64,000 nucleotides of DNA, from the NCBI GenBank assembly GCA_026387335.1, contig JAPLLX010000004.1, forward strand, positions 255,045 through 319,044, written 5' to 3'. The position numbers were made by a program, and so were the translations under genes. The DNA comes from Candidatus Omnitrophota bacterium (GTDB taxonomy: Bacteria > Omnitrophota > Gorgyraeia > Gygaellales > Profunditerraquicolaceae). Of this stretch, positions 28,188-60,043 are shown one piece after another. Numbering within the stretch: the stretch's first letter is position 1; each line of letters opens with the position of its first letter. Below the pieces are notes generated by a model that saw only the letters and a program-made list of their open reading frames with translations, was not told the DNA's origin and searched no databases.

Positions 28188-29448
28188 GGGCGGCAGAGTA
28201 GTCGACCCGGCGAATAAAATTGATGCGCTAATGGATATATTAGTGGAAGATTCTAAGATATCCAAAGTAGCTAAAAATATTCAAGGCGCAGCGGATAAGA
28301 TAATTGATGCGTCGGGCAAAATTGTTCTGCCGGGACTTGTAGATATGCATGTGCATTTGCGGGAGCCGGGCAGGGAAGATAAAGAAACAATCTGCAGCGG
28401 CTCAAAGGCTGCTTTAGCCGGCGGAGTGACTAGTGTCCTGGCCATGCCCAATACCTCTCCGGCAATAGACTCAAAAGAAAATATTAAAATTATAAAAACA
28501 GCTATCCAAAAAAGCGCCAAGGCCAATTGTTTCATCTGCGCCGCTATTACTAAAGGAAGGCTAGGAGAAGAGTTAAGCGATTTCGCCAGCCTTAAAAAAG
28601 AAGGCGCGATTGCCCTCTCTGATGACGGCTCGTCGGTAGATAAGGACGCCCTTATGCTGGAGGCGTTTAAGCAAGCCAAAAAAGAGGATATTCTGGTAAT
28701 CTGCCATAGCGAAGATAAAAAGCTGGCAGCTGGCGGGGTAGTAAATTTAGGTTTTACTTCTACGCGTCTGGGGTTGCGCGGCATATCAACCGAGTCAGAA
28801 TATAAAAGGGTTGAGCGCGACATAAGGTTAGCTAAAGAAACCGGCGCCAGGGTGCATATTGCCCACGTAAGCTGCCAAGAATCGCTGGAAATTATTGCCC
28901 GGGCCAAAAAAAATAAGGTCAGGGTTACCTGCGAGAGTGCGCCGCATTATTTTACTTTTAATGAAGAAGCGGTCTTAGGTTATGATCCTAATTTTAAAAT
29001 GAACCCGCCGCTACGCTCTAAAGAGGATATGTTGGCTATCCGTAAAGGTTTGGCCGACGGTTTAATAGACGTGATCGCCTCAGATCACGCTCCGCATACT
29101 GAAAATGAAAAGGATATTGAGTTTGAACGCGCGGAATGCGGGGTAATCGGCTTAGAAACCGAATTAGCCGCAGCTATCACAGAGTTGATAGGCAATAACT
29201 TATTGGACTGGAGTAAACTGGTCCTCAAAATGTCGTTAAATCCCAGCCGGATTTTAGGCCTGAATAAAGGGACATTAAGCGTCGGCGCTGACGCGGATAT
29301 TATAGTAGTTGACCCTGAAAGAGAATGGGTAGTAAAAAAAGAAAATTTCTATTCCAAGTCTAAAAACTCATCTTTTATCGGCCGTTCGCTTAAGGGTTTT
29401 GTAGAATACACGCTTTGCCAAGGTAAGGTGCACAAATGGAATTCATAG
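28171..29448 (+). CDS. pyrC: dihydroorotase
   Basis: LPGLVDMHVHLREPG metal-binding motif, DHAPH; 425 aa. Confidence 0.9.
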   Translation: MKTLIKGGRVVDPANKIDALMDILVEDSKISKVAKNIQGAADKIIDASGKIVLPGLVDMHVHLREPGREDKETICSGSKAALAGGVTSVLAMPNTSPAIDSKENIKIIKTAIQKSAKANCFICAAITKGRLGEELSDFASLKKEGAIALSDDGSSVDKDALMLEAFKQAKKEDILVICHSEDKKLAAGGVVNLGFTSTRLGLRGISTESEYKRVERDIRLAKETGARVHIAHVSCQESLEIIARAKKNKVRVTCESAPHYFTFNEEAVLGYDPNFKMNPPLRSKEDMLAIRKGLADGLIDVIASDHAPHTENEKDIEFERAECGVIGLETELAAAITELIGNNLLDWSKLVLKMSLNPSRILGLNKGTLSVGADADIIVVDPEREWVVKKENFYSKSKNSSFIGRSLKGFVEYTLCQGKVHKWNS

Positions 29449-31757
29449 CCGATTTTCATGTCCATTCTAAATACTCGCGGGCTACCAGCCGCAATATGGA
29501 TGTCAAGAATTTAAGCGAATGGGCGAAGTTAAAAGGAATCACCCTTATAGGCACGGGAGATTTTACGCATCATTTGTGGCTGGAAGAACTAAAACACACC
29601 TTAGAAGATTGCGGGAATGGGTTATACCAGCATAATGGGGTCTATTTTATCCTGACTGCCGAGGTAAGCAGCATATATTCCAAAAAAAATAAAACCTACC
29701 GCATACACAATGTCATCATCGCTCCATCATTTAAAACCGTGGATAAAATAAATGACAAACTCGGCCGGCTGGGCAACCTGGCCAGCGACGGAAGGCCTAT
29801 CTTAGGGCTGGATGCCGCAGAACTGGCGCGGATTGTCTTTGGTATTGATGAAAACTGTATACTTGTCCCCGGGCATATCTGGACGCCCTGGTTTTCCCTC
29901 TTTGGCTCTATGTCAGGGTTTGACAGGATAGAAGATTGCTTTGAAGAGCAGACACCGAAAATATTTGCTTTGGAAACGGGCCTGTCTTGTTATGATGAAA
30001 AAACAGAGGTTTTAACTGAAAATGGCTGGAAGAAGTTCCCTGAAGTCAGCTATTCCGATAAAATTTGCACTTTGAATATTAAGACCGATAGAATTGAATT
30101 TCAAATTCCGCAAAGAATTTCTAATTATATTTATAAAGGGAAAATGTATAAACTCAGAACTAAAAGAGTAGATTTATTGGTAACCCCTAATCATAAGCTA
30201 CTATATAGCCCCTGCGATTTTAGAAACCGTAAGCCTTATTCTTTGAAAGAAGCAGAAAAGTTATTTAATAAATCCAAAATATTGAAAAAAGACGGTATCT
30301 GGATTGGAGAGAAACCAAAATATTTTACACTACCCGAAGTTAAAATGCAGCATGGTAGTAGATATTATTCCGGATTTCGTAATAAAAAAGAAAATCGCTT
30401 ACCTCTAAAACCCTGGCTAAAGTTTTTTGGTTTCTGGCTTGCAGAGGGCTGGACTAGCGAAGGCAAAGAGGGTGATTACAACGTTTGTGTATGTAACAAT
30501 GATGAAAATTTACTTAATGAAATGAAACAACTTCTTGAGTGCTTCGGTTATAAAGCTTATAAACGAGGTAACTTGGTTCGGGTGAGAGATTTTCAGTTAT
30601 TTCATTATTTAAGACAGTTTGGTAAATGTTATGATAAATTTATTCCATTGAATATTAAATCTCTCTCGAAAGAATTGTTAGAGATTCTATTACAATACTA
30701 TATTAAAGGGGACGGGCATATTTACGGAAGATCTGGAAAGGGTTTATCGGCAACAACCACCTCAATTCGTTTGCGTGACGATTTACAGGAGATAGCCCTA
30801 AAAATAGGGATTTCTGCGTATTACAAATTAGGCCAGAAAAAAGGTACCCCATTTTCTTCGCCCAGCACAAAAAAGATATACAAACAAAGAAACGATGCCT
30901 GGATTATTTATTTTATAAGGCGGAATAAACCAATAATTTTACCCTCAACAATAAAAAAACATAATTATACAGAAAAATGGGTAGATTACGAAGGATGGGT
31001 TTTCTGCGTTACTGTTCCTAATCATGTAATTTATATTCGCAGAAACGGTATTCCTCTTTGGTGCGGTAATTCCGACCCAGCAATGAATTGGCGCTTGAGC
31101 GCTTTAGATAAGTTTACCTTAATTTCCAATAGTGATGCACATTCACCGCAAAAAATTGGACGTGAGGGCAATGTCTTTGACTGCGAGCTTGATTATAAAA
31201 CAATAAGAGAAGTTTTAAAGACAAAAGATAAGAAACGGTTTTTATACACCATAGAGTTTTTCCCGGAAGAGGGGAAGTATCATTTTGACGGGCACCGGCT
31301 TTGCGGTATCCGTTGGTCGCCGAAGGAAACAAAAGAACACGCTGGCAAGTGCCCAAAATGCGGTAAGCCGGTTACTGTCGGGGTAGTGAACCGTGTAGAA
31401 AAATTAGCCGATAGGCCGCAAGGTTTTAAGCCCGAGAACGCCATACCTTTTAAACATTTAATACCTTTGGATGAAATAATCGCCGATGCCAAAGGCGTAG
31501 GCAAAACCAGTGTTGCGGTAGAAAGAGATTACCGGAGTTGCCTGAGTAAATTTGGGACAGAGTTTGAAATCCTGATGGCTGCTCCCAAGCAGGATCTGCT
31601 TAAAGGTTTACCTCCTAAAGTTGCGGAGGGGGTTCTAAGAGTACGTGAAGGTAAAGTCGATATTCAGGCTGGCTACGATGGCGAATATGGAATAATCTCT
31701 ATCTTTGGGAAGGAAGAGCCTGGCCAGAAAAACGAAGAACAATTGAGTTTATTTTAA
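29436..31757 (+). CDS. endonuclease Q (EndoQ-like PHP-domain DNA nuclease) interrupted by an intein. Host protein is residues 1-184 plus 546-773 (412 aa).
   Basis: N-extein DFHVHSKYSRATS...LIGTGDFTHHLW...ETGLS; C-extein SDPAMNWR...LISNSDAHSP...CGIRWSPKETKEHAGKCPKCG (Zn-ribbon), as in archaeal EndoQ; 773 aa in total. Confidence 0.8.
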   Translation: MEFIADFHVHSKYSRATSRNMDVKNLSEWAKLKGITLIGTGDFTHHLWLEELKHTLEDCGNGLYQHNGVYFILTAEVSSIYSKKNKTYRIHNVIIAPSFKTVDKINDKLGRLGNLASDGRPILGLDAAELARIVFGIDENCILVPGHIWTPWFSLFGSMSGFDRIEDCFEEQTPKIFALETGLSCYDEKTEVLTENGWKKFPEVSYSDKICTLNIKTDRIEFQIPQRISNYIYKGKMYKLRTKRVDLLVTPNHKLLYSPCDFRNRKPYSLKEAEKLFNKSKILKKDGIWIGEKPKYFTLPEVKMQHGSRYYSGFRNKKENRLPLKPWLKFFGFWLAEGWTSEGKEGDYNVCVCNNDENLLNEMKQLLECFGYKAYKRGNLVRVRDFQLFHYLRQFGKCYDKFIPLNIKSLSKELLEILLQYYIKGDGHIYGRSGKGLSATTTSIRLRDDLQEIALKIGISAYYKLGQKKGTPFSSPSTKKIYKQRNDAWIIYFIRRNKPIILPSTIKKHNYTEKWVDYEGWVFCVTVPNHVIYIRRNGIPLWCGNSDPAMNWRLSALDKFTLISNSDAHSPQKIGREGNVFDCELDYKTIREVLKTKDKKRFLYTIEFFPEEGKYHFDGHRLCGIRWSPKETKEHAGKCPKCGKPVTVGVVNRVEKLADRPQGFKPENAIPFKHLIPLDEIIADAKGVGKTSVAVERDYRSCLSKFGTEFEILMAAPKQDLLKGLPPKVAEGVLRVREGKVDIQAGYDGEYGIISIFGKEEPGQKNEEQLSLF
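29988..31070 (+). mobile_element. intein (361 aa) with LAGLIDADG homing-endonuclease domain, inserted in the EndoQ ETGLS|SDP motif
   Basis: Block A CYDEKTEVLTENGW, block B VTPNHKLLY, DOD motifs FFGFWLAEGWTS and LLQYYIKGDGHIYG, block G VFCVTVPNHVIYIRRNGIPLWCGN followed by +1 Ser. Removing it restores a contiguous EndoQ motif. Confidence 0.8.
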
Positions 31758-36547: not shown

Positions 36548-36625
36548 GGGCGGTTGGCGCAATTGGTTAGCGCGCCTGATTTACATTCAGGAGGTTTACA
36601 GGTTCAAGTCCTGTACCGCCCACCA
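36548..36625 (+). tRNA. tRNA-Val (anticodon TAC), CCA encoded
   Basis: Acceptor GGGCGGT/ACCGCCC, anticodon stem-loop CCTGA-TTTACAT-TCAGG, T-arm ACAGG-TTCAAGT-CCTGT. Confidence 0.85.
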
Positions 36626-36646
36626 TGAATTTAGAAGAAAAACTTG

Positions 36647-36675
36647 TTGCAAGTTAGCTGTATTTAAGCTAAAAT
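36647..36675 (+). promoter_or_regulatory. promoter for tRNA-Asp (TTGCAA-17-TAAAAT)
   Basis: Seen directly. Confidence 0.45.
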
Positions 36676-36693
36676 TTACATCCTTATGTTCGT

Positions 36694-36772
36694 GGGGTCG
36701 TAGCTTAGCCTGGTTTAAAGCGCCTCCCTGTCACGGAGGAGATCGCGAGTCCGAATCTCGTCGGCCCCGCCA
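36694..36772 (+). tRNA. tRNA-Asp (anticodon GTC), CCA encoded
   Basis: Acceptor GGGGTCG/CGGCCCC (one G-U pair), anticodon stem-loop CCTCC-CTGTCAC-GGAGG, T-arm GCGAG-TCCGAAT-CTCGT. Confidence 0.8.
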
Positions 36773-36814
36773 CTTAAAATCCGCCTTTGGCGCAGCGCAG
36801 GATAGAGTAAAATT

Positions 36815-36842
36815 ACTCCGTAAGCACTTTACGGAGTTTTTT
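36815..36842 (+). terminator. intrinsic terminator after tRNA-Asp
   Basis: Hairpin ACTCCGTAA-gcactt-TTACGGAGT followed by TTTTTT. Confidence 0.6.
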
Positions 36843-36884
36843 ATTGTGGTACAATATAAACATTTAGAACTAAAAGGAGGAAAC

Positions 36885-37205
36885 ATGGCTACTATTGAAG
36901 ATTTCCGGAAATTAGAGTTAAAAATAGCTCAAATTAAAGAGGTTAACGAACATCCTAACGCGGAAAAACTTTTGGTCCTGACCGTGGATTTGGGGGATAA
37001 GACCAAGCAGGTAGTTGCCGGGATAAAAAATTTTTATACCAAAGAGACGCTTTTAGGTAAATATGTGGTGGTAGTAGATAATCTTGACCCCGCGGTTTTA
37101 AGGGGAGTAGAAAGCCAAGGGATGGTTTTGGCTGGTTCGGATGAGTCAGGTCTTACTATTATAATTCCCGAGAGGCCGTTAAAATTAGGGAGCGTAGTCA
37201 AGTGA
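36885..37205 (+). CDS. tRNA-binding domain protein (Trbp111/CsaA/EMAP-like OB-fold)
   Basis: KIAQIKEVNEHPNAEKLLVLTVDLGDKTKQVVAGIKNFY...VDNLDPAVLRGVESQGMVL is the Myf/tRNA-binding domain. Start taken at the ATG of MATIED; the ORF-track GTG start is at 36846. Confidence 0.75.
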   Translation: MATIEDFRKLELKIAQIKEVNEHPNAEKLLVLTVDLGDKTKQVVAGIKNFYTKETLLGKYVVVVDNLDPAVLRGVESQGMVLAGSDESGLTIIIPERPLKLGSVVK

Positions 37206-37708
37206 TCAAGCAATTTGTCCCGGAGGTCGCCTGCCTTAAATGCCAGGGCTGCTGCAGATTTAAGGAAATTGACTCAGTCTGGACGCCTTGCCTGTTAGAA
37301 GAAGAGGTCCAGGATCTACTGGATAAGGATATCCCCGCGGCGTATATAAATATGCAAAGAAAGATCCAGCCGGTCCCCAATCCTAAAGGAGAAGGGTTTC
37401 TCTGCGCTTTTCTAGAAAACCAGAGCAATAAATGCAAGATTTATAACCTGCGGCCTTTCGAGTGCCAGCTTTATCCTTTCCTGATTAACCTGCGGAATAA
37501 AAAAGTAGTGCTGACGGTAGATTTAAATTGTCCCTACATAAAAGAGGCTATTAATAAAAAGGAATTTAAGGAGTACGCGGAGTATTTAGCCGCTTACCTT
37601 AATTCCAAAGAGCAGTTAGAGATGTTGATGGATAACCCCCAGATTATCCAGGCCTATGAGGATGTTACGGATTTGATAGAACTTAAGTTTCCCGATGCGC
37701 CTAAATAA
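37202..37708 (+). CDS. YkgJ-family (UPF0153) Cys-cluster protein, putative Zn/Fe-S binding
   Basis: CLKCQGCCRF plus downstream CxxxxxC motifs; start overlaps the upstream stop by 4 nt; 168 aa. Confidence 0.6.
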   Translation: MIKQFVPEVACLKCQGCCRFKEIDSVWTPCLLEEEVQDLLDKDIPAAYINMQRKIQPVPNPKGEGFLCAFLENQSNKCKIYNLRPFECQLYPFLINLRNKKVVLTVDLNCPYIKEAINKKEFKEYAEYLAAYLNSKEQLEMLMDNPQIIQAYEDVTDLIELKFPDAPK

Positions 37709-38633
37709 ACTCTTCCTGCGCGATAAGAATAAATTTAGTTCTTATTTAAACCTGGAAAGACACGCGTTAGCGGTCTATGCCTTCGCCAATATTTATATCT
37801 GGAGAAGATTCTTTGATATACGCTGGGCGGAAATTGCCGGCAGTCTGTGCGTATTTTTTCAGGATAAGATAGGCTCTTTTTTATATATCCCGCCCTTAGG
37901 AAAAACCCGGGATCCGCAGGTAGTGCAGGAAAATTTCAAAATCCTGGAACGTTTGAATAAGAATCCGGAGTTTGCGCATATAGAAAATATTGAGGAGAAA
38001 GATAAAGGGTTTTACGAAGGCTTAGGGTTAGAATGCGCGTTTAAATCATATGATTATCTTTGCCGCAGAACGGAACTGGCGCAGTTACGCGGGAATAAAT
38101 TTAAATCTAAACGCTCCAGCTGCAATTTTTTTACCAAGCGCTACGATTTCAGTTACGCCAAGCTTACTTTAAAAGAGAGGGGTAGCTGTTTTAAATTATA
38201 TAACCTCTGGGCTCAACAGCGTAACTTGGGTAACCCGGATCATATTTATCAGGGTATGTTATCCGATAGCCGGGTTTCCTTAAAAGAAGCGTTGGTTAAT
38301 TACGCGGATTTAGGCTTTCAGGGTGCGGTAGTAAAAATAGATAAAGAGGTAAAGGGCTTTACTTTCGGGTTTCCTTTAAGCCCGGATACCTTTTGTATAT
38401 TATACGAGATAACCGATTTATCCGTAAAAGGCCTGGCCCAATTTATCTTCCGCTCCTTCGCCCAGGAACTTAAGAGTTACAAATATATTAATATAATGGA
38501 TGACTCTGGGCTAGAAAATTTAAAGAAAGTAAAATTATCGTATCACCCGGAGAAATTGGTTCCGGCGTATATTGCTAGAAGAAAACCAACTTCAGGGACG
38601 GTTCTCAACTCAAAGCAAAAGTGTCCCCATTAA
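37695..38633 (+). CDS. DUF2156 (MprF C-terminal-like, aminoacyl-tRNA-dependent transferase fold) stand-alone protein. The last 13 codons and the stop are supplied by a family B palindromic element.
   Basis: C-terminal NLKKVKLSYHPEKLVPAYIA resembles the MprF/LPG-synthase C-terminal motif GLxxFKxKFxPxWxPxY; 312 aa; overlaps the upstream gene by 14 nt. Confidence 0.6.
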   Translation: MRLNKLFLRDKNKFSSYLNLERHALAVYAFANIYIWRRFFDIRWAEIAGSLCVFFQDKIGSFLYIPPLGKTRDPQVVQENFKILERLNKNPEFAHIENIEEKDKGFYEGLGLECAFKSYDYLCRRTELAQLRGNKFKSKRSSCNFFTKRYDFSYAKLTLKERGSCFKLYNLWAQQRNLGNPDHIYQGMLSDSRVSLKEALVNYADLGFQGAVVKIDKEVKGFTFGFPLSPDTFCILYEITDLSVKGLAQFIFRSFAQELKSYKYINIMDDSGLENLKKVKLSYHPEKLVPAYIARRKPTSGTVLNSKQKCPH

Positions 38634-38668
38634 GGGGACACTTTAAGATTGGCTCGAGAACCGTCCCT
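38594..38668. repeat. family B palindromic element, copy 1. Nested inverted repeats: outer AGGGACGGTTCTC...GAGAACCGTCCCT, inner AAAGTGTCCCC-loop-GGGGACACTTT.
   Basis: Seen directly; the copy at 59969-60043 is its near-exact reverse complement. Confidence 0.9.
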
Positions 38669-38676
38669 AATCTGAT

Positions 38677-39522
38677 ATGAATATAGATGAAATAGAATTT
38701 GTAATTTTTGACACTGAAACCACCGGCCTTGATCCGTCTTCCGGGGATAGGATAGTGGAGTTGGCGGCTTTAAAATTTAAAGGCCTGGAAAAAATATCTG
38801 AGTTTCAGGCGTTGGTCAACCCGGGTAAGCCTGTATCCGAGGCAGCCTTTGCGGTCAATAAAATCAGCGCCGAGATGCTCAAAGACGCGCCCCAGCCCGA
38901 AACAGTAATCCCTAAATTTCTAGATTTTATTCAGGGTTCTTGCGTTTGTTCTTACAATGCCTGTTTTGACCTGGAATTTTTAAATAATGAATTAAAAGTT
39001 TTAAACCTGCCGGCGTTAAAAGATATCCTGATAATTGACGCGCTGAAGATGGCCAAGCGCGTTCTTCCGGGCTTAGAGCGTTACGCGCTCTGGTTTGTCG
39101 CGGATACCCTGGGTATAAAAATAAAGCAACAGCATCGGGCGTTCTCCGACGTAGAACTGACCTTAGCTGTCTTTAATAAATTAAAGGATATCCTTAAGAC
39201 CAAGGGCATAACAGATTTCAATAAATACCTTGGGTTATTTAGCGTTAATCCCGCGTTGCTGGAAAATATTAATAACCAAAAGATCGCCCAGATCCAGGAA
39301 GCTTTAAACTTAAGGGCGCAGATTAAAATTGAATATATTTCTGTTTCCAGCGCCCAGGTTACCCGGCGCGAGGTGGTCCCGAAAGAAATTAAACGCGAGA
39401 ACGGCAAAGACTATTTAGTGGGTTACTGCTGCCTGAAGCGCCAGGAGCGCTCGTTTCGGGTTGATAATATATTGCATATAGAGATCGTTAATGAAAACAC
39501 TGGAAATCAAGCTTCCTTTTAA
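38677..39522 (+). CDS. DnaQ-like DEDD 3'-5' exonuclease fused to a C-terminal WYL-like domain
   Basis: Exo I FVIFDTETTGL, Exo III HRAFSDVELT; C-terminal ~90 aa contain ERSFRVDNILHIEI, resembling the WYL motif. Confidence 0.7.
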   Translation: MNIDEIEFVIFDTETTGLDPSSGDRIVELAALKFKGLEKISEFQALVNPGKPVSEAAFAVNKISAEMLKDAPQPETVIPKFLDFIQGSCVCSYNACFDLEFLNNELKVLNLPALKDILIIDALKMAKRVLPGLERYALWFVADTLGIKIKQQHRAFSDVELTLAVFNKLKDILKTKGITDFNKYLGLFSVNPALLENINNQKIAQIQEALNLRAQIKIEYISVSSAQVTRREVVPKEIKRENGKDYLVGYCCLKRQERSFRVDNILHIEIVNENTGNQASF

Positions 39523-40564
39523 GCTTAAAAAATCGGTTTTGGCCTTAGGCCCGCAGACCAAGAATACGATTTGTTGGGCTAAGGCGGATAGAGCCTGGGT
39601 CAGTCCGCTACACGGAGATTTAAGTATACACAAAAGCCTATCTGATTTTGAAAGATGCGCAAAGTATTTTCTAAAAAAACGCCCTAAAATTATTGCCTGC
39701 GATTTACATCCGGAGTATCAGTCAACCCGCTACGCTTTTTCCCTACAGAATAGATACCTCATCCGGCCTATCCAACACCACCACGCCCATATCGCTTCCT
39801 GCATGGCGGAAAATGGGTTAAAGAACCAAAAGATAATCGGCGTAGCTTTTGACGGGACCGGCTTAGGCGTGGACAACACTATATGGGGAGCGGAATTTTT
39901 ACTCTGTGATTATAAAAATTTTTCCCGCGGGGCGCATTTAAAAGAAATCCCACTCGTGGGAGGAGAACGCGCCATATTAGAGCCGAGAAGGTTGGTGGCG
40001 GCCTGGCTTAATTTTGATCAGGCAATAGATAAAAAGCAGTTATTCCGGAAAATATACCTCTGCGGGATAAATTCTCCCTTAGCTAGCAGCATGGGCCGGT
40101 TATTTGATGCTGCCGGGAGCCTTATTTTAGGTAAAGAAAAAGCAAAATTTGAGGCAGAATTGGCGATTGAGCTGGAAAAACTAGCCGCCAAAAATTATCT
40201 TAAAACTGCAGGTTATAAGTTTAAAATTAGCAAATCCCCAGAGGGCTATATTTTAGACCCGTCCGGCATTTTTAAACAGATAGTCAGGGATTTAAAAGCG
40301 AAGAAACCCCGGGAGCAGATCGCCCAAAAGTTTCACGCGACAGTAGCGCAAATGATTTTAAAGACCTGTTTAATCTTAAGGCGGCAAAGTAAGATCAATA
40401 AGGTTGTTTTATCCGGAGGGGTATTCCAAAATAAACTTTTACTTAGTATCTGTTTAGACTTATTATATAAGCAAGGTTTTAAAGTTTTTACGCATCAGCA
40501 GTTGTCTTGTAATGACGCGGGCGTTTCTTTGGGACAGGCCGTTATTAGCGGCTATAGAGGTTAA
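39491..40564 (+). CDS. hypF: HypF-like carbamoyltransferase, Kae1/YgjD-like C-terminal domain only (no acylphosphatase, Zn-finger or YrdC domains)
   Basis: IQHHHAHIASCMAENG and VAFDGTGLGVDNTIWGAEFL are HypF Kae1-domain motifs; followed by hypC and hypD; only 357 aa. Confidence 0.7.
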   Translation: MKTLEIKLPFKLKKSVLALGPQTKNTICWAKADRAWVSPLHGDLSIHKSLSDFERCAKYFLKKRPKIIACDLHPEYQSTRYAFSLQNRYLIRPIQHHHAHIASCMAENGLKNQKIIGVAFDGTGLGVDNTIWGAEFLLCDYKNFSRGAHLKEIPLVGGERAILEPRRLVAAWLNFDQAIDKKQLFRKIYLCGINSPLASSMGRLFDAAGSLILGKEKAKFEAELAIELEKLAAKNYLKTAGYKFKISKSPEGYILDPSGIFKQIVRDLKAKKPREQIAQKFHATVAQMILKTCLILRRQSKINKVVLSGGVFQNKLLLSICLDLLYKQGFKVFTHQQLSCNDAGVSLGQAVISGYRG

Positions 40565-40567
40565 ACT

Positions 40568-40777
40568 ATGTGTTTAGGCATACCCATGAAGATCAGAAAG
40601 ATCAACGCTGATTTTGCCGAGGTTGAATCCGGTAGGCTCTTGCGTAATATCAATATCCAGATGCTCTCCGGGTTAAAATTGGGGGATTATGTCTTGGTTC
40701 ACGCCGGTTTTGCCATCCAAAAAGTTGACCCGGCCCGGGCCAAAGAAACTTTGAGGATAGTCGATGAAATACGTTGA
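40568..40777 (+). CDS. hypC: hydrogenase maturation factor HypC
   Basis: N-terminal MCLGIP, GDYVLVHAGFAIQKVD; 69 aa. Confidence 0.85.
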   Translation: MCLGIPMKIRKINADFAEVESGRLLRNINIQMLSGLKLGDYVLVHAGFAIQKVDPARAKETLRIVDEIR

Positions 40778-41852
40778 TGAATTCCGTTCTCCCCGGCTGG
40801 TTGAGAAAATCGCCGCTAAGATTACCGCGCTAAACCCCGGGAAGAATATTAATATTATGGAAGTCTGCGGAACGCATACGCATAATTTCTTCCGTTTCGG
40901 GTTAAATAAGCTCTTACCTAAAAATATAAGATTAATTTCCGGGCCGGGTTGCCCGGTTTGCGTAAGCCCGCAGGCCTACATTGATGCCGCTATTGAACTA
41001 GCCAAAAACAAAAATATCATTATCGCTACTTTCGGCGATATGCTGCGCATACCCGGAAGCGCGTCCAGCCTGGAAAAAGAAAAAGCGAAATCCGGAAACG
41101 TGGTTGTGGTATACTCTCCACTGGACGCGGTTAGATTGGCTGCCGCTAATCCGGATAAAAAAATAGTATTTTTAGCGGTAGGGTTTGAGACTACCGCTCC
41201 GGCAATAGCCTTAAGCGTCCTGGCCGCCAAAAATGGTAAGCTCAAGAATATCTCTTTTTTTTCCGCGTTAAAACTGATCCCGGCGGCTATTGCTTATTTA
41301 TTGCTGGATAAACGGCTTAAAATAGACGGCTTTTTGTGCCCCGGGCATGTCTCAGCAATCATCGGGACAAAAGATTACGCATTTATCCCGAAAAAATACC
41401 AGATAGCTTGTTGCGTTACGGGATTTGAGCCGGTGGATATTTTGGAAGGGGTATATATGATCCTTGAGCAGATAGTCCGGCATAAACCCTATGTCGCCAA
41501 TCAATATTTGCGCATAGTCACTAAGGCGGGGAATACAAAAGCCAAGAAAATAATGAAGAGGGTTTTTAAAATAAGCGATTCTAACTGGCGCGGTTTTGGG
41601 ATAATAGCGGATAGCGGCCTGGAGTTAAGAAAAGAATTTGCGAGCTTGAACACCGCGCAAGTTTTTCCTCTCCGCTTAAAGAGCAAATCAAAATTCGCCA
41701 GGCTTTGCAGATGCGCGGATATCTTAAAGGGGCTTATTTCCCCGACCAGCTGCTTATTGTTTGCTCGCCGCTGCAGACCGGATAGCCCAATAGGCCCGTG
41801 TATGGTTTCAAGTGAGGGCGCGTGTAATGCTTATTACAGGTTCAGGAACTAA
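40764..41852 (+). CDS. hypD: hydrogenase maturation factor HypD
   Basis: CGTHTH, GPGCPVCV, FETTAP motifs; 362 aa. Confidence 0.88.
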   Translation: MKYVDEFRSPRLVEKIAAKITALNPGKNINIMEVCGTHTHNFFRFGLNKLLPKNIRLISGPGCPVCVSPQAYIDAAIELAKNKNIIIATFGDMLRIPGSASSLEKEKAKSGNVVVVYSPLDAVRLAAANPDKKIVFLAVGFETTAPAIALSVLAAKNGKLKNISFFSALKLIPAAIAYLLLDKRLKIDGFLCPGHVSAIIGTKDYAFIPKKYQIACCVTGFEPVDILEGVYMILEQIVRHKPYVANQYLRIVTKAGNTKAKKIMKRVFKISDSNWRGFGIIADSGLELRKEFASLNTAQVFPLRLKSKSKFARLCRCADILKGLISPTSCLLFARRCRPDSPIGPCMVSSEGACNAYYRFRN

Positions 41853-47206: not shown

Positions 47207-48214
47207 ATGCTGACCAAAAGAATATTGCTTGGGCACGGAAGCGGCGGAAGACTGACCCATAACCTCATAAAAGAGGTCTTGCTTAAGAAGTTAAATAATC
47301 CCATCCTTAGGGAACTCTCCGATAGCGCCGTCATCGACTATAAAGAAAAAATCGCTTTTACCACGGATTCTTTTGTAGTCAGCCCGTTATTTTTCCCCGG
47401 CGGGGATATTGGAAAACTGGCGGTAACCGGCACGCTAAATGACCTGGTCATGCTGGGGGCTATCCCGGAGTATCTTTCTTTAGCTTTAATTATGGAAGAA
47501 GGGCTTGATCAGGCTATTTTAGAAAAGATAATTTCTTCCATATCTTTTTACGCCAAAAAATCCGGGGTCAGCATTGTTACCGGAGATACGAAAGTAGTAG
47601 AGAGAGGCGCCGTAGATAAATTATTTATCAACACCTCCGGGATAGGCCGGCTTGTATCCACGAAAAGGCTTTGTTTAAAAAATATCGCGCCGCGGGATTT
47701 AATCATCATCACCGGTAATATCGCCGAGCACGGCTTAAGCGTGTTGGCTAAAAGAAAGGAACTGGATTTAGGATTTAACATTAAAAGCGATTGCAATCCT
47801 TTAAACGGATTAATCATCCCGCTTTTAAAAAAATGCCCGGGAGTAAAATTTATGCGCGACCCCACCCGCGGAGGTGTCGCTACAACCTTAAATGAAGTCG
47901 CCGAGGGTACAAATCTGGGCGTAGTCATCAACGAGAAAGATATTCCGGTTTCCGCAAAGGTCAGGGTTGCCTGCGAGCTATTAGGCATAGACCCCTTATA
48001 TGTCGCTAACGAAGGAAAAGCGTTATTAGTGGTTGATCCTAAAGAGGCCGCTAGAATCGTCCGTTTTTTACGAAGGCACCCGTTAGGCCGCCGCTCAAAA
48101 ATCATCGGCGAAATAGTCAAAGAACCCCAGGGCAGGTTATTACTGCGTACTGTTTTTAACGCGGAACGCGTTTTAGATATGTTGACCGCGCAAACTTTAC
48201 CGAGGATATGTTAA
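47207..48214 (+). CDS. hypE: hydrogenase maturation carbamoyl dehydratase HypE
   Basis: LLGHGSGG N-terminus, PurM-like fold, C-terminal PRIC (the cysteine that carries the carbamoyl/cyano group); 335 aa. Confidence 0.88.
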   Translation: MLTKRILLGHGSGGRLTHNLIKEVLLKKLNNPILRELSDSAVIDYKEKIAFTTDSFVVSPLFFPGGDIGKLAVTGTLNDLVMLGAIPEYLSLALIMEEGLDQAILEKIISSISFYAKKSGVSIVTGDTKVVERGAVDKLFINTSGIGRLVSTKRLCLKNIAPRDLIIITGNIAEHGLSVLAKRKELDLGFNIKSDCNPLNGLIIPLLKKCPGVKFMRDPTRGGVATTLNEVAEGTNLGVVINEKDIPVSAKVRVACELLGIDPLYVANEGKALLVVDPKEAARIVRFLRRHPLGRRSKIIGEIVKEPQGRLLLRTVFNAERVLDMLTAQTLPRIC

Positions 48215-49103: not shown

Positions 49104-50090
49104 ATGAAAATAGTCGGATTAACCTACGATTTAAGGACAGATTACCAGTTTAAAGAAGGCGATCCTCTGGATGCCAACGCCGAATTTGACCATCCTTCAA
49201 CTATCGACGTTATTGCTGACGCCATTGCGGCCAACGGTTTTAAAGTAGAACGCATCGGGAATGCCGGAAATCTTCTGGATAAGATCTCTTCTTTAAAAGT
49301 AGATATAGTCTTTAATATTTCCGAAGGTCTTACCGGAAGGAACCGGGAATCACAGGTCCCTATTCTGCTGGAAATGGCCGGTATCCCATTTGTGGGAGCA
49401 GACGCCTTGACCCTGGGCCTGACTTTAGATAAGGTGATGGCCAAGAAGATTTTTATCTCCGAGAAGATTCCCACCCCGAAATTTTTTGAAGTCAGTTCGG
49501 TCGGCGAGCTGACCAATCTTAACCATCATAAGTTCCCGTTAATAGTCAAGCCGCGCTTTGAGGGTTCTTCCAAGGGTTTAAGCGAGAGTTCCCGGGTAGA
49601 AACCAGAGAAGAGTTGGCTAAGCAGGTTGAGTATGTTATAAGCGCCTATAAACAACCGGCATTAGTGGAAGAATTTATCTCCGGCCAGGAGTTCACCGTA
49701 GCTTTAGTCGGAAACGATCCGGTTGAAGTCCTTCCGATTGTCCAGATCAAGATTGACGGGAGGTTAAAATTAAACGACAAGTTCTATACTTTTGCCCGGA
49801 TCACTTCGGATAGATTAGAATATATCTGTCCCGCGAAGATCTCCAAGGAGTTAAAGAAAACAATCGACAAGTTGGCCCTAAAGACTTATAAGTCGGTAGA
49901 GTGCCGGGATTTCGGCCGGGTGGATTTCCGCGTGGATAATGAAGGCAATCCTTATGTCTTAGAGATTAACCCTCTGCCCTCACTTTCTACGGAAGATGTA
50001 TTTATGCTGTTGGCGAAAAATATCGGCATAACTTATGAGCAGATGATCGGGAAAATCTTAAACAGCGCGATCAAGAGGCATAATCTTTAA
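49104..50090 (+). CDS. D-alanine--D-alanine ligase family ATP-grasp enzyme (short, atypical), paralogue 1
   Basis: VDIVFNISEGLTGRNRESQVPILLEMAGIPFVGADALTLGLTLDKVMAKKIF aligns with the Ddl N-terminal/central domain; ATP-grasp C-domain ...EINPLPSL; 328 aa. Confidence 0.7.
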   Translation: MKIVGLTYDLRTDYQFKEGDPLDANAEFDHPSTIDVIADAIAANGFKVERIGNAGNLLDKISSLKVDIVFNISEGLTGRNRESQVPILLEMAGIPFVGADALTLGLTLDKVMAKKIFISEKIPTPKFFEVSSVGELTNLNHHKFPLIVKPRFEGSSKGLSESSRVETREELAKQVEYVISAYKQPALVEEFISGQEFTVALVGNDPVEVLPIVQIKIDGRLKLNDKFYTFARITSDRLEYICPAKISKELKKTIDKLALKTYKSVECRDFGRVDFRVDNEGNPYVLEINPLPSLSTEDVFMLLAKNIGITYEQMIGKILNSAIKRHNL

Positions 50091-50094
50091 TAAA

Positions 50095-51096
50095 ATGAAA
50101 ATAGCTTTGACTTATAACCTGAAGCAAAAAGACGAAAGCAAACCGGCGGATTATTTTTCGGAGTGCGACAGCGCGGATACGATCAACGCGATTACCAACG
50201 CTATCCGAAAAAAAGGCCATGATGTTGAAGCTATAGACGTGGAATACCCAAAGCTGCTCTCTTATTTCCGAAAAAATTCCGTGGATATGGTTTTTAATAT
50301 TGCCGAGGGCAAATCCGGGAAGTTCCGCGAATCGGAAGTGCCGGCAATCCTGGATTATCTGAATATCCCCTATACAGGCTCGGATACCTTCTCCCTAGCT
50401 TTAGCTTTAAATAAAGCCATTACCAAAAAAATCCTCAAAGCGGAAAATATCCCCACGCCGAATTTTCAACTTTTCATAAAAGGAAACGAAGAGCTGGATC
50501 CAGCGTTAAGGTTCCCATTAATAGTCAAGCCGAATTGCGAGGGTTCCGCCAAAGGTATCTCTAAGGCCAATGTGGTGAGTAATTCTAAGGACCTGTATAA
50601 GAGGGTGAGAGAGACGTTAGAAGTTTATAATCAGGAGGCCTTAGCCGAAGAATTTATTGAAGGCAAAGAGCTTACTGTCGGGATATTAGAAAACGGCAAG
50701 ACAAAAGCCCTGCCGATTTTAGAGATAGATTTCTCTACCTGTAAGAATAGCGGAGAATATTTTTATTCCTGGAAGATGAAGGAGTATCAGGGGGATAAAG
50801 ATCTAGGGTTAGTCCCGGCCTTTCATTGCCCGGCGCGGCTGGATAAAGATATTGAGGAGCGGGTTAAAGAAGTGGCGCTGAGGACTCACCGCGCGATTGG
50901 CTGCGCGGACATCTCGCGCACCGATATCCGTTTGGATAAATTTAATGTTCCGTATGTGTTAGAGATAAACCCCTTGCCGGGATTAGACCCCAAAGAATCC
51001 AACTTTCCGATTATGGCTTACGCCGCCGGGATGAAATATGAAGATCTTATTGAGGCAATAATCTTGAGCGCCTCAGAAAGGAAAGGGCTAAATTGA
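50095..51096 (+). CDS. D-alanine--D-alanine ligase family ATP-grasp enzyme, paralogue 2
   Basis: Same architecture as the upstream gene (VDMVFNIAEGKSGKFRESEVPAILDYLNIPYTGSD ... EINPLPGL); 333 aa. Confidence 0.7.
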   Translation: MKIALTYNLKQKDESKPADYFSECDSADTINAITNAIRKKGHDVEAIDVEYPKLLSYFRKNSVDMVFNIAEGKSGKFRESEVPAILDYLNIPYTGSDTFSLALALNKAITKKILKAENIPTPNFQLFIKGNEELDPALRFPLIVKPNCEGSAKGISKANVVSNSKDLYKRVRETLEVYNQEALAEEFIEGKELTVGILENGKTKALPILEIDFSTCKNSGEYFYSWKMKEYQGDKDLGLVPAFHCPARLDKDIEERVKEVALRTHRAIGCADISRTDIRLDKFNVPYVLEINPLPGLDPKESNFPIMAYAAGMKYEDLIEAIILSASERKGLN

Positions 51097-52280
51097 GTAA
51101 CGTACAGGCAATTGAAAACCAGAAATTGCAGCAGGAGAGTTCTCCTGTAGTACGCAGTACCAAGAAACCGCGCGATTATCAGCAGATAGCAATTTATAAA
51201 GATGTCAATCCTCTGGATTGGGAAGATTGGCATTGGCAGATAAAAAACAGGATTTGTTCTAAAGATATTTTAGCGCAGATTATAAATTTAACTCCCGATG
51301 AGGAGAAAGGTATTGATAAGGCCAAAGGAAGATTATCCATGGCCATAACTCCTTATTGGGGAACGTTGCTTGATCCGGAAGACGCCGATTGCCCTCTAAG
51401 GCGCCAGGCTGTCCCGGTGGTCCAGGAATTAATGATTTCTCCCCATGAAATGACTGATCCTTGCGCGGAAGACCGGGATTCTCCGGCCCCGCACCTGGTG
51501 CATCGTTACCCGGACAGGGTTCTATTATTGGCTACAGACCACTGCGCAATGTACTGCCGCCACTGCACGCGCCGGCGCCTGGTCGGAGACCATGGAGAAA
51601 AAGATTCTAATTCTCCGGATAGGTTTGATGCCGCTATAGAATATATAAAAGCTAACCGTAAAATAAGGGACGTGTTAATATCCGGAGGCGACCCGTTAAC
51701 CCTGGAAGACGAGGAATTGGATGATCTGCTCGGAAAAATCCGCTCTATATCCCACATAGAATTCTTACGGCTGGGTACGCGCATACCCGTCACGCTTCCG
51801 CAGCGCATTACGGAAAACTTGGTGAATATAATGAAAAAATATTCGCCGCTTTGGGTAAGCATTCATTTTAACCATCCGAAAGAGATAACCAAACGCGCTA
51901 AGATCGCCTGCGATATGTTAGCGGAAGCCGGGATTCCTTTGGGCAGCCAGACTGTGCTTTTAAAAGGGATTAACGACCGGCCGTATATAATGAAAAAACT
52001 GGTCCACGAATTACTGCAGATTAGAGTCAGGCCGTATTATATTTATCAATGCGATCCTGTGCGGGGGACCCAGCATTTCCGGACCCCGGTTGCCGTCGGG
52101 ATCAATATTATGGAAAAATTACGCGGGCATACTTCCGGCTACGCTGTCCCGACTTATGTCATTGACGGTCCGGGAGGCGGCGGGAAAATACCCGTCGGGC
52201 CGAATTATATTCTTTCCCAGGCCAAGGGAAAGTACGTCCTGCGTAACTACAAAGGCAAGATCTATACCTACCTGGAATAA
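51093..52280 (+). CDS. kamA: lysine 2,3-aminomutase family radical SAM enzyme (KamA/EpmB-like)
   Basis: CAMYCRHCTRRR radical-SAM cluster motif in KamA context, PLP-binding region; 395 aa; start overlaps the upstream stop. Confidence 0.8.
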   Translation: MSNVQAIENQKLQQESSPVVRSTKKPRDYQQIAIYKDVNPLDWEDWHWQIKNRICSKDILAQIINLTPDEEKGIDKAKGRLSMAITPYWGTLLDPEDADCPLRRQAVPVVQELMISPHEMTDPCAEDRDSPAPHLVHRYPDRVLLLATDHCAMYCRHCTRRRLVGDHGEKDSNSPDRFDAAIEYIKANRKIRDVLISGGDPLTLEDEELDDLLGKIRSISHIEFLRLGTRIPVTLPQRITENLVNIMKKYSPLWVSIHFNHPKEITKRAKIACDMLAEAGIPLGSQTVLLKGINDRPYIMKKLVHELLQIRVRPYYIYQCDPVRGTQHFRTPVAVGINIMEKLRGHTSGYAVPTYVIDGPGGGGKIPVGPNYILSQAKGKYVLRNYKGKIYTYLE

Positions 52281-52334
52281 ACTGTTCGTTTTTTGTCCAT
52301 TAATCTTAGGAATCTCTTCGGAGAGTAGAGAGCT

Positions 52335-54290
52335 ATGGATGTCAGGAATAAACGAAATTTTATCCTTTTAGGGCATGCTCAGTCCGGCAAGACCACACTC
52401 GCGGAGAGCATGCTTTATTTCTCTAAGGCCACCACCCGTAAAGGCAAAGTTGAAGATGGGACGACTGTCAGTGACTACAGCTTTGACGAGATAGAAAAGA
52501 AAAATTCCATCAATTTAAGCCTGCTCTTTTGTGAATATCAGGGTAACCAGATCCAGATTGTGGATACACCCGGTTACGCGGATTTCTTCGGTGAGGTTGT
52601 CGCCGGGGCCCGCGCGGTAGATAGCGCTCTTATTGTGGTGGACGCCACAGCCGGTGTCCAGGTAGGGACTGAGCGCGCCTGGGATATCGCCCAGGAAAAT
52701 AACCTTCCCTGCATGATTTTTATCAATAAGATGGATAAAGAAGGCGCGGATGTGAATAAGGTTTTAGCGGACCTAAAATCCAGCCTTTCCAAAAATTGCG
52801 TAATCATAGAATCTTTGGAAGACCCGCTTTTAATGGAAGCAATCGCTGAGAGCGACGACAGCCTTTTGGAAAAATACCTGGCGGTTTTAAGGCTCTCCCT
52901 GGAAGAGATAAAAAGCGGTCTGGCTCAGGCAGTTATGCAACGTAAGCTCTTCCCCGTTGTGGTTGGTTCGGCGCTTACCGATAAAGGGATTAAAGATTTG
53001 CTGGACGATGTTTTACAATATCTGCCCAGTCCTCTGGATAGGGCTCCCGTAATAGCGGATAATCCGTTAAAAACGGGTGAGAAAAAAGAAGTTATTTTAA
53101 AAGAAGAGGCGTCTTTCTCAGCGTTTGTCTTTAAGAATATTTCAGACCCTTTTGTCGGCCAGCTTACGTTGTTGCGCGTTTTTTCCGGCATGCTTGCGGC
53201 AAATTCGGGTTTTTACAACGTAAGCCGCAGTCTTAAAGAAAGAATAGGACCGATATATTTTCTGCAGGGCAAGGGTGAACGCCAAGTGGACAGCGCGCAT
53301 TGCGGGGATATTGTCGCTATCGCTAAATTAAAGAATACGGGAGTCTCGGATTCGCTGGCGCAGGAAAAAGAGCAGTTTTTATTTGAGCCGATTGTTTTCC
53401 CCGAGCCGGCGATATCAGCGTCGGTCAAGCCCAAATCCCGCGAGGACGAAGAAAAAATTTCTGACGCCTTGCATAAACTGGCGGCGGAAGACCATACGTT
53501 CGGGGTCAGGCACGACCCGCAGACCAAAGAGTTGGTTGTTTCCGGGCTGGGCGACTTGCACTTAGCGGTTATGGTCGGCAGGATGAAAAAAAGATTTAAT
53601 GTCGCGGTGGATTTAGGCACGCCGAAAGTATCCTATAAAGAGACGATCTCTAAAAGCGCTAAGGTGCAGGGTAAATTCAAGCGCCAATCCGGCGGTCGCG
53701 GCCAATACGGAGATTGCTGGTTAGAGGTAAGCCCTTTAGGACGGGGCAAGGGCCTGGAGTTCGTAGATAAGATAGTCGGAGGGGCAATACCGCGCAATTT
53801 TATTCCTTCGGTGGAAAAAGGCGTGCGCCAGGCTTCCTTAGAAGGCGCGGTCGCGGGTTACCCCATTGAAGATATCCGGGTGACTTTAGTTGACGGTTCA
53901 TACCATGAGGTGGACTCTTCGGATATGGCTTTTCAAATCGCCGGGGCGATGGCTTTACGCAAGGCGGTTATGGAAGCCGGCCCGGTATTATTAGAGCCGA
54001 TAATGGATATTGAGATATATATTCCGGAAGAATGCCTGGGAACGATTTCCGGAGATATTAATTCCCGCCGGGGCAGGATCATGGGTATGGAGATAAAAGG
54101 CAAACAACAGGTAGTCAAAGTGCAGGCGCCGCTAGCGGAGATGTTTAAGTACGCCAATGACCTGCGTTCAATAACCGCGGGCAAAGGCTCTTACACAATG
54201 CGTTTTTCGCATTACGAAGAAGTGCCGCATAAGTTTGCCGCATCAATAATCACTCAATATCAAGCCACCAAAAAACAGGAAGAACAATAA
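52335..54290 (+). CDS. elongation factor G paralogue with Tyr in place of the switch II catalytic His
   Basis: G1 GHAQSGKTTL, G3 DTPGYADF (canonical DxPGHxDF), G4 NKMD; full five-domain EF-G length of 651 aa. Confidence 0.75.
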   Translation: MDVRNKRNFILLGHAQSGKTTLAESMLYFSKATTRKGKVEDGTTVSDYSFDEIEKKNSINLSLLFCEYQGNQIQIVDTPGYADFFGEVVAGARAVDSALIVVDATAGVQVGTERAWDIAQENNLPCMIFINKMDKEGADVNKVLADLKSSLSKNCVIIESLEDPLLMEAIAESDDSLLEKYLAVLRLSLEEIKSGLAQAVMQRKLFPVVVGSALTDKGIKDLLDDVLQYLPSPLDRAPVIADNPLKTGEKKEVILKEEASFSAFVFKNISDPFVGQLTLLRVFSGMLAANSGFYNVSRSLKERIGPIYFLQGKGERQVDSAHCGDIVAIAKLKNTGVSDSLAQEKEQFLFEPIVFPEPAISASVKPKSREDEEKISDALHKLAAEDHTFGVRHDPQTKELVVSGLGDLHLAVMVGRMKKRFNVAVDLGTPKVSYKETISKSAKVQGKFKRQSGGRGQYGDCWLEVSPLGRGKGLEFVDKIVGGAIPRNFIPSVEKGVRQASLEGAVAGYPIEDIRVTLVDGSYHEVDSSDMAFQIAGAMALRKAVMEAGPVLLEPIMDIEIYIPEECLGTISGDINSRRGRIMGMEIKGKQQVVKVQAPLAEMFKYANDLRSITAGKGSYTMRFSHYEEVPHKFAASIITQYQATKKQEEQ

Positions 54291-59968: not shown

Positions 59969-60043
59969 AGGGACGGTTCTCAAGCCAATCTCAAAGTGTC
60001 CCCTAACAGGGGACACTTTTGCTTTGAGTTGAGAACCGTCCCT
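59969..60043. repeat. family B palindromic element, copy 2 (reverse orientation relative to copy 1)
   Basis: AGGGACGGTTCTCAAGCCAATCTCAAAGTGTCCCCTAACAGGGGACACTTTTGCTTTGAGTTGAGAACCGTCCCT; preceded by the tandem direct 8-mer AATCTTAGAATCTTAG. Confidence 0.9.

Follow-up and report, generated by a model that had tools for sequence, protein, structure and literature searches.

The locus described here lies in a 64,000-nucleotide stretch of a metagenome-assembled Candidatus Omnitrophota genome (assembly GCA_026387335.1, contig JAPLLX010000004.1, positions 255,045 to 319,044), termed the window throughout, and carries overlapping genes for a Cys-cluster protein of the YkgJ family and a transferase-fold protein of the DUF2156 family downstream of genes for tRNA-Val and tRNA-Asp. 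It defines a two-part, often fused enzyme family consisting of a Cys-cluster module and a dual-GNAT module and not, as proposed in the initial annotation of this DNA, a system around the two tRNA genes. Natural fusions show, in the sense of the Rosetta-stone principle, that YkgJ and DUF2156 constitute a single functional unit, i.e., one enzyme, since both are translationally coupled here and are found as a single polypeptide in approximately 40% of the related clusters. YkgJ is the obligate partner of DUF2156 in this family. No description of a YkgJ-DUF2156 pairing was found in our literature search. The elements of the locus are the following:

36548-36625, plus strand: tRNA-Val (UAC; gene tac), found by ARAGORN and with Rfam RF00005 (68.8 bits)
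36694-36772, plus strand: tRNA-Asp (GUC; gene gtc), found by ARAGORN and with Rfam RF00005 (61.3 bits)
36815-36837, plus strand: terminator-like hairpin with a 10-bp stem, then TTTTTATT, with the T run extending to 36845; found by consensus scan, the same hairpin appearing in the fold
36828-36880, plus strand: promoter-like site TTTACG-16-TACAAT with an upstream TG, and AAGGAGG at 36874-36880; consensus matches
36885-37205, plus strand: gene 1, tRNA_bind protein of 106 amino acids (aa), PF01588
37202-37708, plus strand: gene 2, YkgJ/CxxCxxCC protein of 168 aa, PF03692
37695-38633, plus strand: gene 3, DUF2156/LPG_synthase_C protein of 312 aa, PF09924
38594-38668, no strand assigned: palindromic repeat element of about 75 nucleotides (nt), hairpin dG -31.6, z -5.4; outside the system
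38677-39522, plus strand: gene 4, DEDDh exonuclease-WYL protein of 281 aa, PF00929 and PF13280

The overlaps between genes 1 and 2 (4 nt, GTGA, 37202-37205) and between genes 2 and 3 (14 nt, 37695-37708) were read directly from the sequence and agree with the three coupled genes described initially. The families assigned to these genes at that stage were right as well, with all three proteins scoring above the Pfam cut-offs. Gene order and overlaps are far beyond chance, because they recur in dozens of genomes whose flanking genes differ.

The YkgJ-DUF2156 pair and its fusions

An exhaustive search among representatives yielded 3,691 relatives, and the best 150 cluster representatives were analysed for fusion. 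Many of these were 450-545 aa long, and nine out of ten such proteins tested were CxxCxxCC-LPG_synthase_C fusions. Using a YkgJ hidden Markov model, 59 of the 150 representatives were found to be fused, including all 57 with a length of at least 400 aa. The fused N-terminal domain matched the YkgJ protein of the window over its full length (33% identity, E-value 3e-27). Besides further Omnitrophota, Nitrospirota such as Nitrospira defluvii contained fusions. Fusion partners other than CxxCxxCC, for example in a tRNA_bind-DUF2156 protein, were not found in the family. Distant split relatives retained the YkgJ-DUF2156 pair with a 4-nt overlap. In a crude neighbour-joining tree rooted on the structure 2HQY (BT_3689 of Bacteroides thetaiotaomicron), approximately 29 changes between fused and split forms were counted, with both states interleaved. 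Repeated fusion and fission are plausible, since the split genes already overlap. The initial annotation had described a three-gene operon, which holds for genes 1 to 3; the fusions, which provide the strongest evidence, and gene 4 had been missed.

The genomic surroundings of the pair were followed in two further samples. Among nine contexts examined for relatives that were fused or distantly related and split, YkgJ was fused or adjacent in eight, an RNase_T-type exonuclease adjacent in two, tRNA_bind adjacent in one, and tRNA genes nearby in none. Starting from the fusion, a scan of metagenomes yielded 80 loci, and in 74 of these the fusion was encoded by a single open reading frame (ORF). 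In one fused lineage, comprising 24 of these 80 loci (L104-L168; for example L148, 2242-3762, and L153, 750-2099, both on the minus strand), a divergently oriented gene for a 474-aa protein without Pfam, NCBIfam or PDB match adjoins the fused gene. Beyond it, a KamA-family radical S-adenosylmethionine (SAM) aminomutase was found in 16 of the 24 loci. This neighbourhood may point to chemistry of amino acids or beta-amino acids and is a possible lead to the substrate. P0266 (L090), the sampled relative nearest to 2HQY, had no YkgJ neighbour. Its gene has a translation-associated neighbourhood, with the genes for bL25 (a ribosomal protein) and YchF to one side and that for trigger factor to the other.

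The window itself contains a KamA-family aminomutase gene as well, scoring just under the AblA cut-off (520.5 versus 525.4). It belongs to a cluster at 49104-54290, together with two paralogous genes for D-Ala-D-Ala-ligase-like ATP-grasp proteins (both below the Ddl cut-offs) and a gene for an EF-G-like GTPase. This cluster may encode a beta-amino-acid ligation pathway. The cluster is located 13 kb from the operon and was not linked to it within the window.

The gene 2 protein matched PF03692 CxxCxxCC with 39 bits versus a cut-off of 23. Both the N-terminal CxxCxxCC motif and the C-terminal Cys/RPxxC motif of the family are present. Eight cysteines (C11, C14, C17, C18, C68, C78, C88, C110) as well as R84 and P85 are invariant, whether the protein is split or fused. 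The AlphaFold2 (AF2) model had a predicted local distance difference test (pLDDT) score of 89.5, and a fold search with it found no relative among solved structures and none in the viral library. Homology searches with YkgJ yielded orthologues only and no new architectures. By analogy to FliB, a CxxCxxCC-like protein in which a [4Fe-4S] cluster is essential for SAM-dependent lysine methylation, YkgJ would bind an Fe-S cluster or Zn. Homology to YkgJ has also been noted for DpdM, a candidate preQ1 methyltransferase. Both share a similar Cys-rich motif with the YkgJ protein of the window; the latter, however, is a stand-alone protein of 168 aa with eight conserved cysteines and no sign of SAM binding, while neither FliB nor DpdM has a DUF2156 partner.

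The gene 3 protein was assigned by profile search to PF09924 LPG_synthase_C (98.5 bits versus a cut-off of 27.5, E-value 5e-28, model positions 11-297 of 298), in agreement with the initial assignment. An NCBI entry with 100% identity to it is annotated as phosphatidylglycerol lysyltransferase domain-containing protein. The lack of a flippase domain was also borne out, with a soluble protein of 312 aa that begins at residue 1 of the DUF2156 domain and has no MprF-type N-terminal flippase domain, in a family with CxxCxxCC as sole fusion partner. The 13-aa disordered C-terminal tail derives from the repeat of about 75 nt, which is inserted over the stop codon. This nested palindromic repeat looks like a repetitive extragenic palindrome (REP) or a miniature inverted-repeat transposable element (MITE). 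The outer arms (AGGGACGGTTCTCAA...TTGAGAACCGTCCCT) are conserved, and AAGTGTCCCC-N5-GGGGACACTT forms the inner stem. A second copy lies at about 59969-60043 in inverse orientation to that at 38594-38668.

The AF2 model of the gene 3 protein reached a pLDDT of 88.3. Segment 128-150 contains seven K/R and no D/E at a local pLDDT of about 63, and residues G133, K137, R140, N144 and F146 of this basic alpha(+) segment are invariant in the family. The alpha(+) helix has been implicated in aminoacyl-tRNA binding in DUF2156 enzymes. A C-terminal K-x-K-L-S-Y-x-P motif is also kept. In a sequence search of the PDB 2HQY was the sole match at E-values up to 10 (phmmer 4.6e-27, profile 4.8e-41, 25% identity). 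Ranking of folds with Foldseek, using the AF2 model, placed 2HQY first with a template modelling (TM) score of 0.82-0.86. The next approximately 20 matches were aminoacyl-tRNA transferases, i.e., MprF C-domains including 5VRV and the aminoacyl-tRNA-dependent peptide synthases Sba18/Sbb17 (TM 0.54-0.62), ranking above acetyl-CoA-dependent tandem GNATs such as 2WPW (TM about 0.5). FemX reached 0.55-0.59, and FemX and FemA together 0.46-0.59. Both are distant fold matches only, and gene 3 had no Pfam FemAB match. The gene 3 protein is a soluble dual-GNAT DUF2156 protein of the BT_3689/2HQY subgroup.

The known relatives may be compared as follows. BT_3689 (2HQY) and its Helicobacter pylori homologue HPB8_1270, both free-standing proteins of about 300 aa, resemble the gene 3 protein in size, solubility, dual GNAT fold and full-length homology. 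The basic helix G-x-K-F-x-x-K-R-x-x-x-N-x-F and the K-x-K-L-S-Y-x-P motif are common to 2HQY and the gene 3 protein, but 2HQY differs in being outside the YkgJ-associated clade and in being acidic. The DUF2156 proteins of the window's subclade are uniformly basic with a median isoelectric point (pI) of 9.3, compared to 5.4 for 2HQY. The C-domain of MprF/aminoacyl-phosphatidylglycerol synthase (4V34/4V36, 5VRV, 7DUW) belongs to the same PF09924 family, has the dual-GNAT fold with the alpha(+) helix, and was the second-best structural match (TM 0.55-0.62); however, identity is 9-15%, and the sequence profile did not detect it. Furthermore, the N-terminal flippase/transmembrane domain of MprF is absent from gene 3, and MprF has no Cys-cluster partner.

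The operon in Omnitrophota

The genome scan identified 80 loci, all from Omnitrophota or from bins labelled close to Omnitrophota, with DUF2156 proteins 52-74% identical to that of the window. YkgJ was found directly upstream of DUF2156 in 78 of these 80 loci, with the 14-nt overlap at most junctions. The exonuclease-WYL gene followed downstream on the same strand in 74 of 80, in 71 of them within 250 nt. The tRNA_bind gene adjoined YkgJ upstream in 67 of the 70 testable loci, 57 of them with the identical 4-nt stop/start overlap. The four-gene block is a conserved operon of one Omnitrophota clade, and the conservation of the triad of genes 1 to 3, on which the initial proposal had been made to depend, extends beyond these 67 loci to a fused Omnitrophota lineage (L088). 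There, tRNA_bind, the fused core and exonuclease-WYL are all retained with overlaps at a core identity of 46%. In this lineage a gene for a 136-aa RF-1-domain protein (ArfB-like peptidyl-tRNA hydrolase, L088:4274-4684) overlaps the start of tRNA_bind. It was seen in L088 alone and was rejected as a part of the system. An exonuclease also follows one relative of 32% identity.

The gene 1 protein matched PF01588 tRNA_bind with 103 bits (cut-off 27), and its PDB matches were 1MKH (3e-30), Trbp111 (1PYB, 3e-26) and 8VTZ (3.5e-26). TIGR00399 metG_C_term, the model for the beta subunit of methionine--tRNA ligase (MetRS), was passed at the border (117.6 versus 116.65). Judged by these matches it is a predicted tRNA-binding OB-fold protein of the MetRS-C/Trbp111 type and not of the CsaA type, so that of the initial label "Trbp111/CsaA-type" the first half is kept. 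It is a typical member of the group comprising Trbp111, the MetRS C-terminal domain and the MetRS beta subunit, but in this locus shows translational coupling to an enzyme pair other than a synthetase. MetRS was not present in the 64-kb window nor in the loci fetched. The start of gene 1 is most likely ATG 36885 rather than GTG 36846, because AAGGAGG (36874-36880) is located four bases ahead and the resulting 106 aa match the length of the orthologues. In the family as a whole the tRNA_bind gene is a clade-level accessory of the YkgJ-DUF2156 core. The free tRNA-binding module that had been seen as paired with the transferase is indeed coupled to it in the clade, but was found adjacent to the fused core in only a few metagenomic loci (7 of 68 testable).

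The gene 4 protein matched PF00929 with 125.6 bits and PF13280 with 47.7 bits, with PolC/DnaQ exonuclease models as best NCBIfam matches. By its domains it is predicted to combine a 3'-5' exonuclease of the DEDDh (DnaQ/RNase T-like) type with a WYL domain in one protein. PADLOC found no matches for genes 1-3 and generic DEDDh and WYL models only for gene 4, and the PHROGs scan gave nothing useful. A defence system was rejected on these results.

The tRNA genes and the terminator placed upstream by the initial annotation were recovered by ARAGORN, Rfam and hairpin scan. The terminator-like hairpin is predicted at consensus level to end the tRNA transcription unit, and the promoter-like site and the Shine-Dalgarno sequence would serve gene 1, again as consensus matches. 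An Rfam scan of the leader detected the two tRNAs only, and no riboswitch, T-box or other known RNA. In 40 of 66 clade loci, the tRNA-Val/tRNA-Asp pair lay upstream at a distance of at most 2.5 kb, often beyond an inserted ORF of about 504 aa. Elsewhere tRNA genes near the core were found in none of the nine contexts described above and within 2.5 kb in 4 of the 80 metagenomic loci. Since they are rare beside the core outside the window's clade, the tRNA genes were rejected as components of the system. They are syntenic neighbours by descent and probably no functional component. The inserted ORF, absent from the window, lies between tRNA-Asp and gene 1 in 28 Omnitrophota loci (for example L017:2362-3894; also L020 and L021). 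It looks secreted; the N-terminus resembles a signal peptide, and the composition is that of a beta-barrel-like protein.

Other neighbours vary. Upstream, pyrD/pyrF are found in the closest relatives only. Downstream, hypF-C/hypD differ among loci, and HypF-C and HypD were rejected as operon members, representing a separate hydrogenase-maturation module. The 357-aa protein encoded at 39491-40564 consists of the C-terminal Kae1-like half of HypF only, without acylphosphatase, Zn-finger and YrdC domains; HypD follows at 40764-41852 and HypE further on at 47207-48214. In this genome, HypF seems to be either split or truncated. At 29436-31757, an ORF of 773 aa with two LAGLIDADG_3 matches stops 2 nt before a tRNA-Arg(CCG) gene and is possibly an intein-containing or homing-endonuclease-bearing gene.

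Donor and acceptor of the predicted transferase

For an aminoacyl-tRNA donor the evidence is moderate and comprises PF09924 membership, the ranking of folds, the alpha(+) segment, the coupled tRNA_bind gene, the basic pI and the precedent of ATE1. All PF09924 members with biochemistry found in the literature, namely MprF, ErdS, ErgS and VlmA/Ady7, use aminoacyl-tRNA. VlmA/Ady7 from the formation of azoxy natural products are free-standing PF09924 aminoacyl-tRNA transferases with a hydroxylamine as acceptor, and fungal ErgS is a free-standing DUF2156 enzyme which aminoacylates ergosterol. Compared by description, these are stand-alone DUF2156 proteins like gene 3, which take aminoacyl-tRNA from the cellular pool and serve non-phospholipid acceptors; their contexts (biosynthetic clusters, fungi) differ and lack YkgJ, tRNA_bind and exonuclease. 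The precedent of VlmA/Ady7 means that non-lipid acceptors are already known for free-standing PF09924 enzymes. Together with ErgS, they are a precedent for the initial idea of aminoacyl-tRNA-dependent modification. The initial step from the missing flippase domain to a non-lipid acceptor does not follow, however, as ErgS acts on ergosterol. The acceptor may be a lipid, a small molecule, a protein or a nucleic acid. Eukaryotic ATE1, a GNAT-fold aminoacyl-tRNA-protein transferase whose N-terminal domain binds an oxygen-sensitive [4Fe-4S] cluster via four cysteines, offers a parallel architecture, with an N-terminal Cys-rich module followed by a GNAT-fold transferase.

Tentatively, and with a confidence somewhat short of even, we regard YkgJ and DUF2156 as an aminoacyl-tRNA-dependent, metal-cluster-assisted transferase built like ATE1. 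The GNAT-II lobe, together with the basic alpha(+) helix and the K-x-K-L-S-Y-x-P motif, would take the 3' end of the charged tRNA, and the aminoacyl group would pass to an acceptor positioned between both GNAT lobes. YkgJ would carry an Fe-S or Zn centre, which may build part of the acceptor site or gate the activity, for example in redox or oxygen sensing. In the window's clade, the Trbp111-like protein may help to capture the tRNA; its characterised relatives bind tRNA by its shape.

Several observations weigh against this assignment. The alpha(+) and C-terminal Lys motifs are common to 2HQY too and thus do not discriminate between donors. 2HQY reportedly contains acetyl-CoA in its active site, and deletion of HPB8_1270 partly lowers the acetylation of four lysines of RNase J (PMC10700544). 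The gene 3 profile found no MprF, ErdS or Fem structure in the PDB even at E-values up to 10. ATE1 was not among the top 50 fold matches, and the pair matched PF03692 and PF09924 in Pfam but neither ATE_N nor ATE_C, which leaves an analogy only. The pI is mixed in the wider YkgJ-associated family, and basic pI was rejected as a family-wide RNA-binding marker, since it holds in the window's subclade only. Most fused members have no tRNA-related neighbour: in addition to the tRNA_bind count given above, an exonuclease was adjacent in 8 of 64 testable metagenomic loci, both genes always occurred together, and five of the seven loci with both were split and of the window type. Such an all-or-none co-occurrence is as expected for clade-level synteny. 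As tRNA_bind is rare beside the fused core, the enzyme in general needs no neighbouring tRNA-binding gene. Finally, with its borderline pass of the MetRS beta-subunit model, gene 1 could be a housekeeping gene.

A part of these observations would be explained if DUF2156 bound acetyl-CoA or another acyl-CoA in GNAT-II and N-acylated a protein lysine or a small amine, with YkgJ as a metal-cluster accessory or second catalytic module and no charged tRNA as donor. On balance we hold this to be rather unlikely, but only a little less likely than the aminoacyl-tRNA reading. 2HQY, with its reported acetyl-CoA, is by far the best match (profile E-value 5e-41, TM 0.82-0.86), but shares just 25% identity, and neither 2HQY nor P0266 falls within the YkgJ-associated clade, both being acidic (pI 5.4-5.5 versus 9.3). 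Around the GNAT-II beta4-alpha3 loop, 2HQY and the gene 3 protein share a conserved region; nevertheless, aminoacyl-tRNA transferases ranked above acetyl-CoA-dependent tandem GNATs in the fold search. The finding in H. pylori speaks for acetylation, while being genetic, partial and without in-vitro assay. The scarcity of tRNA-related neighbours in most of the family fits an acyl-CoA donor, which leaves the tightly coupled tRNA-binding gene in 67 of 70 loci unexplained. The KamA-family aminomutase close to the one fused lineage (24 of 80 loci) also fits. This neighbourhood is reminiscent of the AblA/AblB system of beta-lysine acetylation. The initial assignment of gene 3 as an MprF-type aminoacyl-tRNA transferase stands with respect to PF09924; the protein belongs, however, to the BT_3689/2HQY branch, for which the experimental hints point to acetyl-CoA.

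Independent of the donor, genes 1 and 4 might be mere companions of the pair, with gene 1 as a split MetRS beta subunit or general Trbp111, gene 4 as a DnaQ-like proofreading or repair exonuclease, and inherited gene order and co-expression without shared biochemistry. The score of gene 1 just above the MetRS beta-subunit cut-off, its best PDB matches with MetRS C-domains, the PolC/DnaQ models matched by gene 4, the all-or-none and phylogenetically restricted occurrence of tRNA_bind and DEDD, and the origin of 80 of 80 genome loci from one phylum are in line with it. We consider this rather unlikely. The 4-nt overlap is kept in 57 of 67 adjacent cases, and the block stays intact while the pyrD/pyrF, ~504-aa insert and hypF/hypD neighbours change. 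Moreover, it is kept around the fused core of L088 at 46% identity, and an exonuclease accompanies the relative of 32% identity. An RNA-directed modification or repair system is improbable. In it, the acceptor would be tRNA or some other RNA, recruited by the Trbp111-like protein, with an Fe-S step by YkgJ, addition of an acyl or aminoacyl group by DUF2156 and trimming of the 3' end by the exonuclease. While all four genes have plausible links in the window's clade to nucleic acids (tRNA_bind, RNase T/DnaQ-type exonuclease, basic DUF2156), YkgJ relatives include DpdM, and the GNAT-fold protein Mom modifies DNA with Gly-tRNA, the fused core mostly occurs without tRNA_bind or exonuclease, YkgJ is structurally unlike anything solved or in the viral library, and the link to DpdM exists at family level only.

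Significance of the YkgJ-DUF2156 family

Enzymes with a DUF2156 domain divert charged tRNAs from translation into lipid remodelling and antibiotic building. The large BT_3689-like branch of soluble bacterial DUF2156 proteins has no established function or donor, and in a sizeable part of it the DUF2156 protein has an eight-cysteine YkgJ module as its obligate partner, often within one fused polypeptide. This pairing would give a first biochemical context to small YkgJ proteins, a very widespread family whose sole characterised relatives are unusual [4Fe-4S] methyltransferases. The natural Nitrospira fusions ease the expression of a defined two-component enzyme. In a far-reaching extension of the ATE1-like reading, which we consider distinctly unlikely, YkgJ-DUF2156 would represent an unrecognised, widespread bacterial class of metal-cluster-dependent aminoacyl-tRNA transferases, analogous to ATE1, with a non-lipid target such as a protein, a nucleic acid or a metabolite and Fe-S-based redox or oxygen coupling, to which Omnitrophota would add a dedicated tRNA-capturing subunit and a 3'-5' exonuclease. 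If the donor is aminoacyl-tRNA, the family would provide a new bacterial tRNA-dependent, possibly redox-gated route of aminoacylation. If it is acetyl-CoA, the family would mark the place at which the switch of donor from that of the GNATs to tRNA occurred within one Pfam family.

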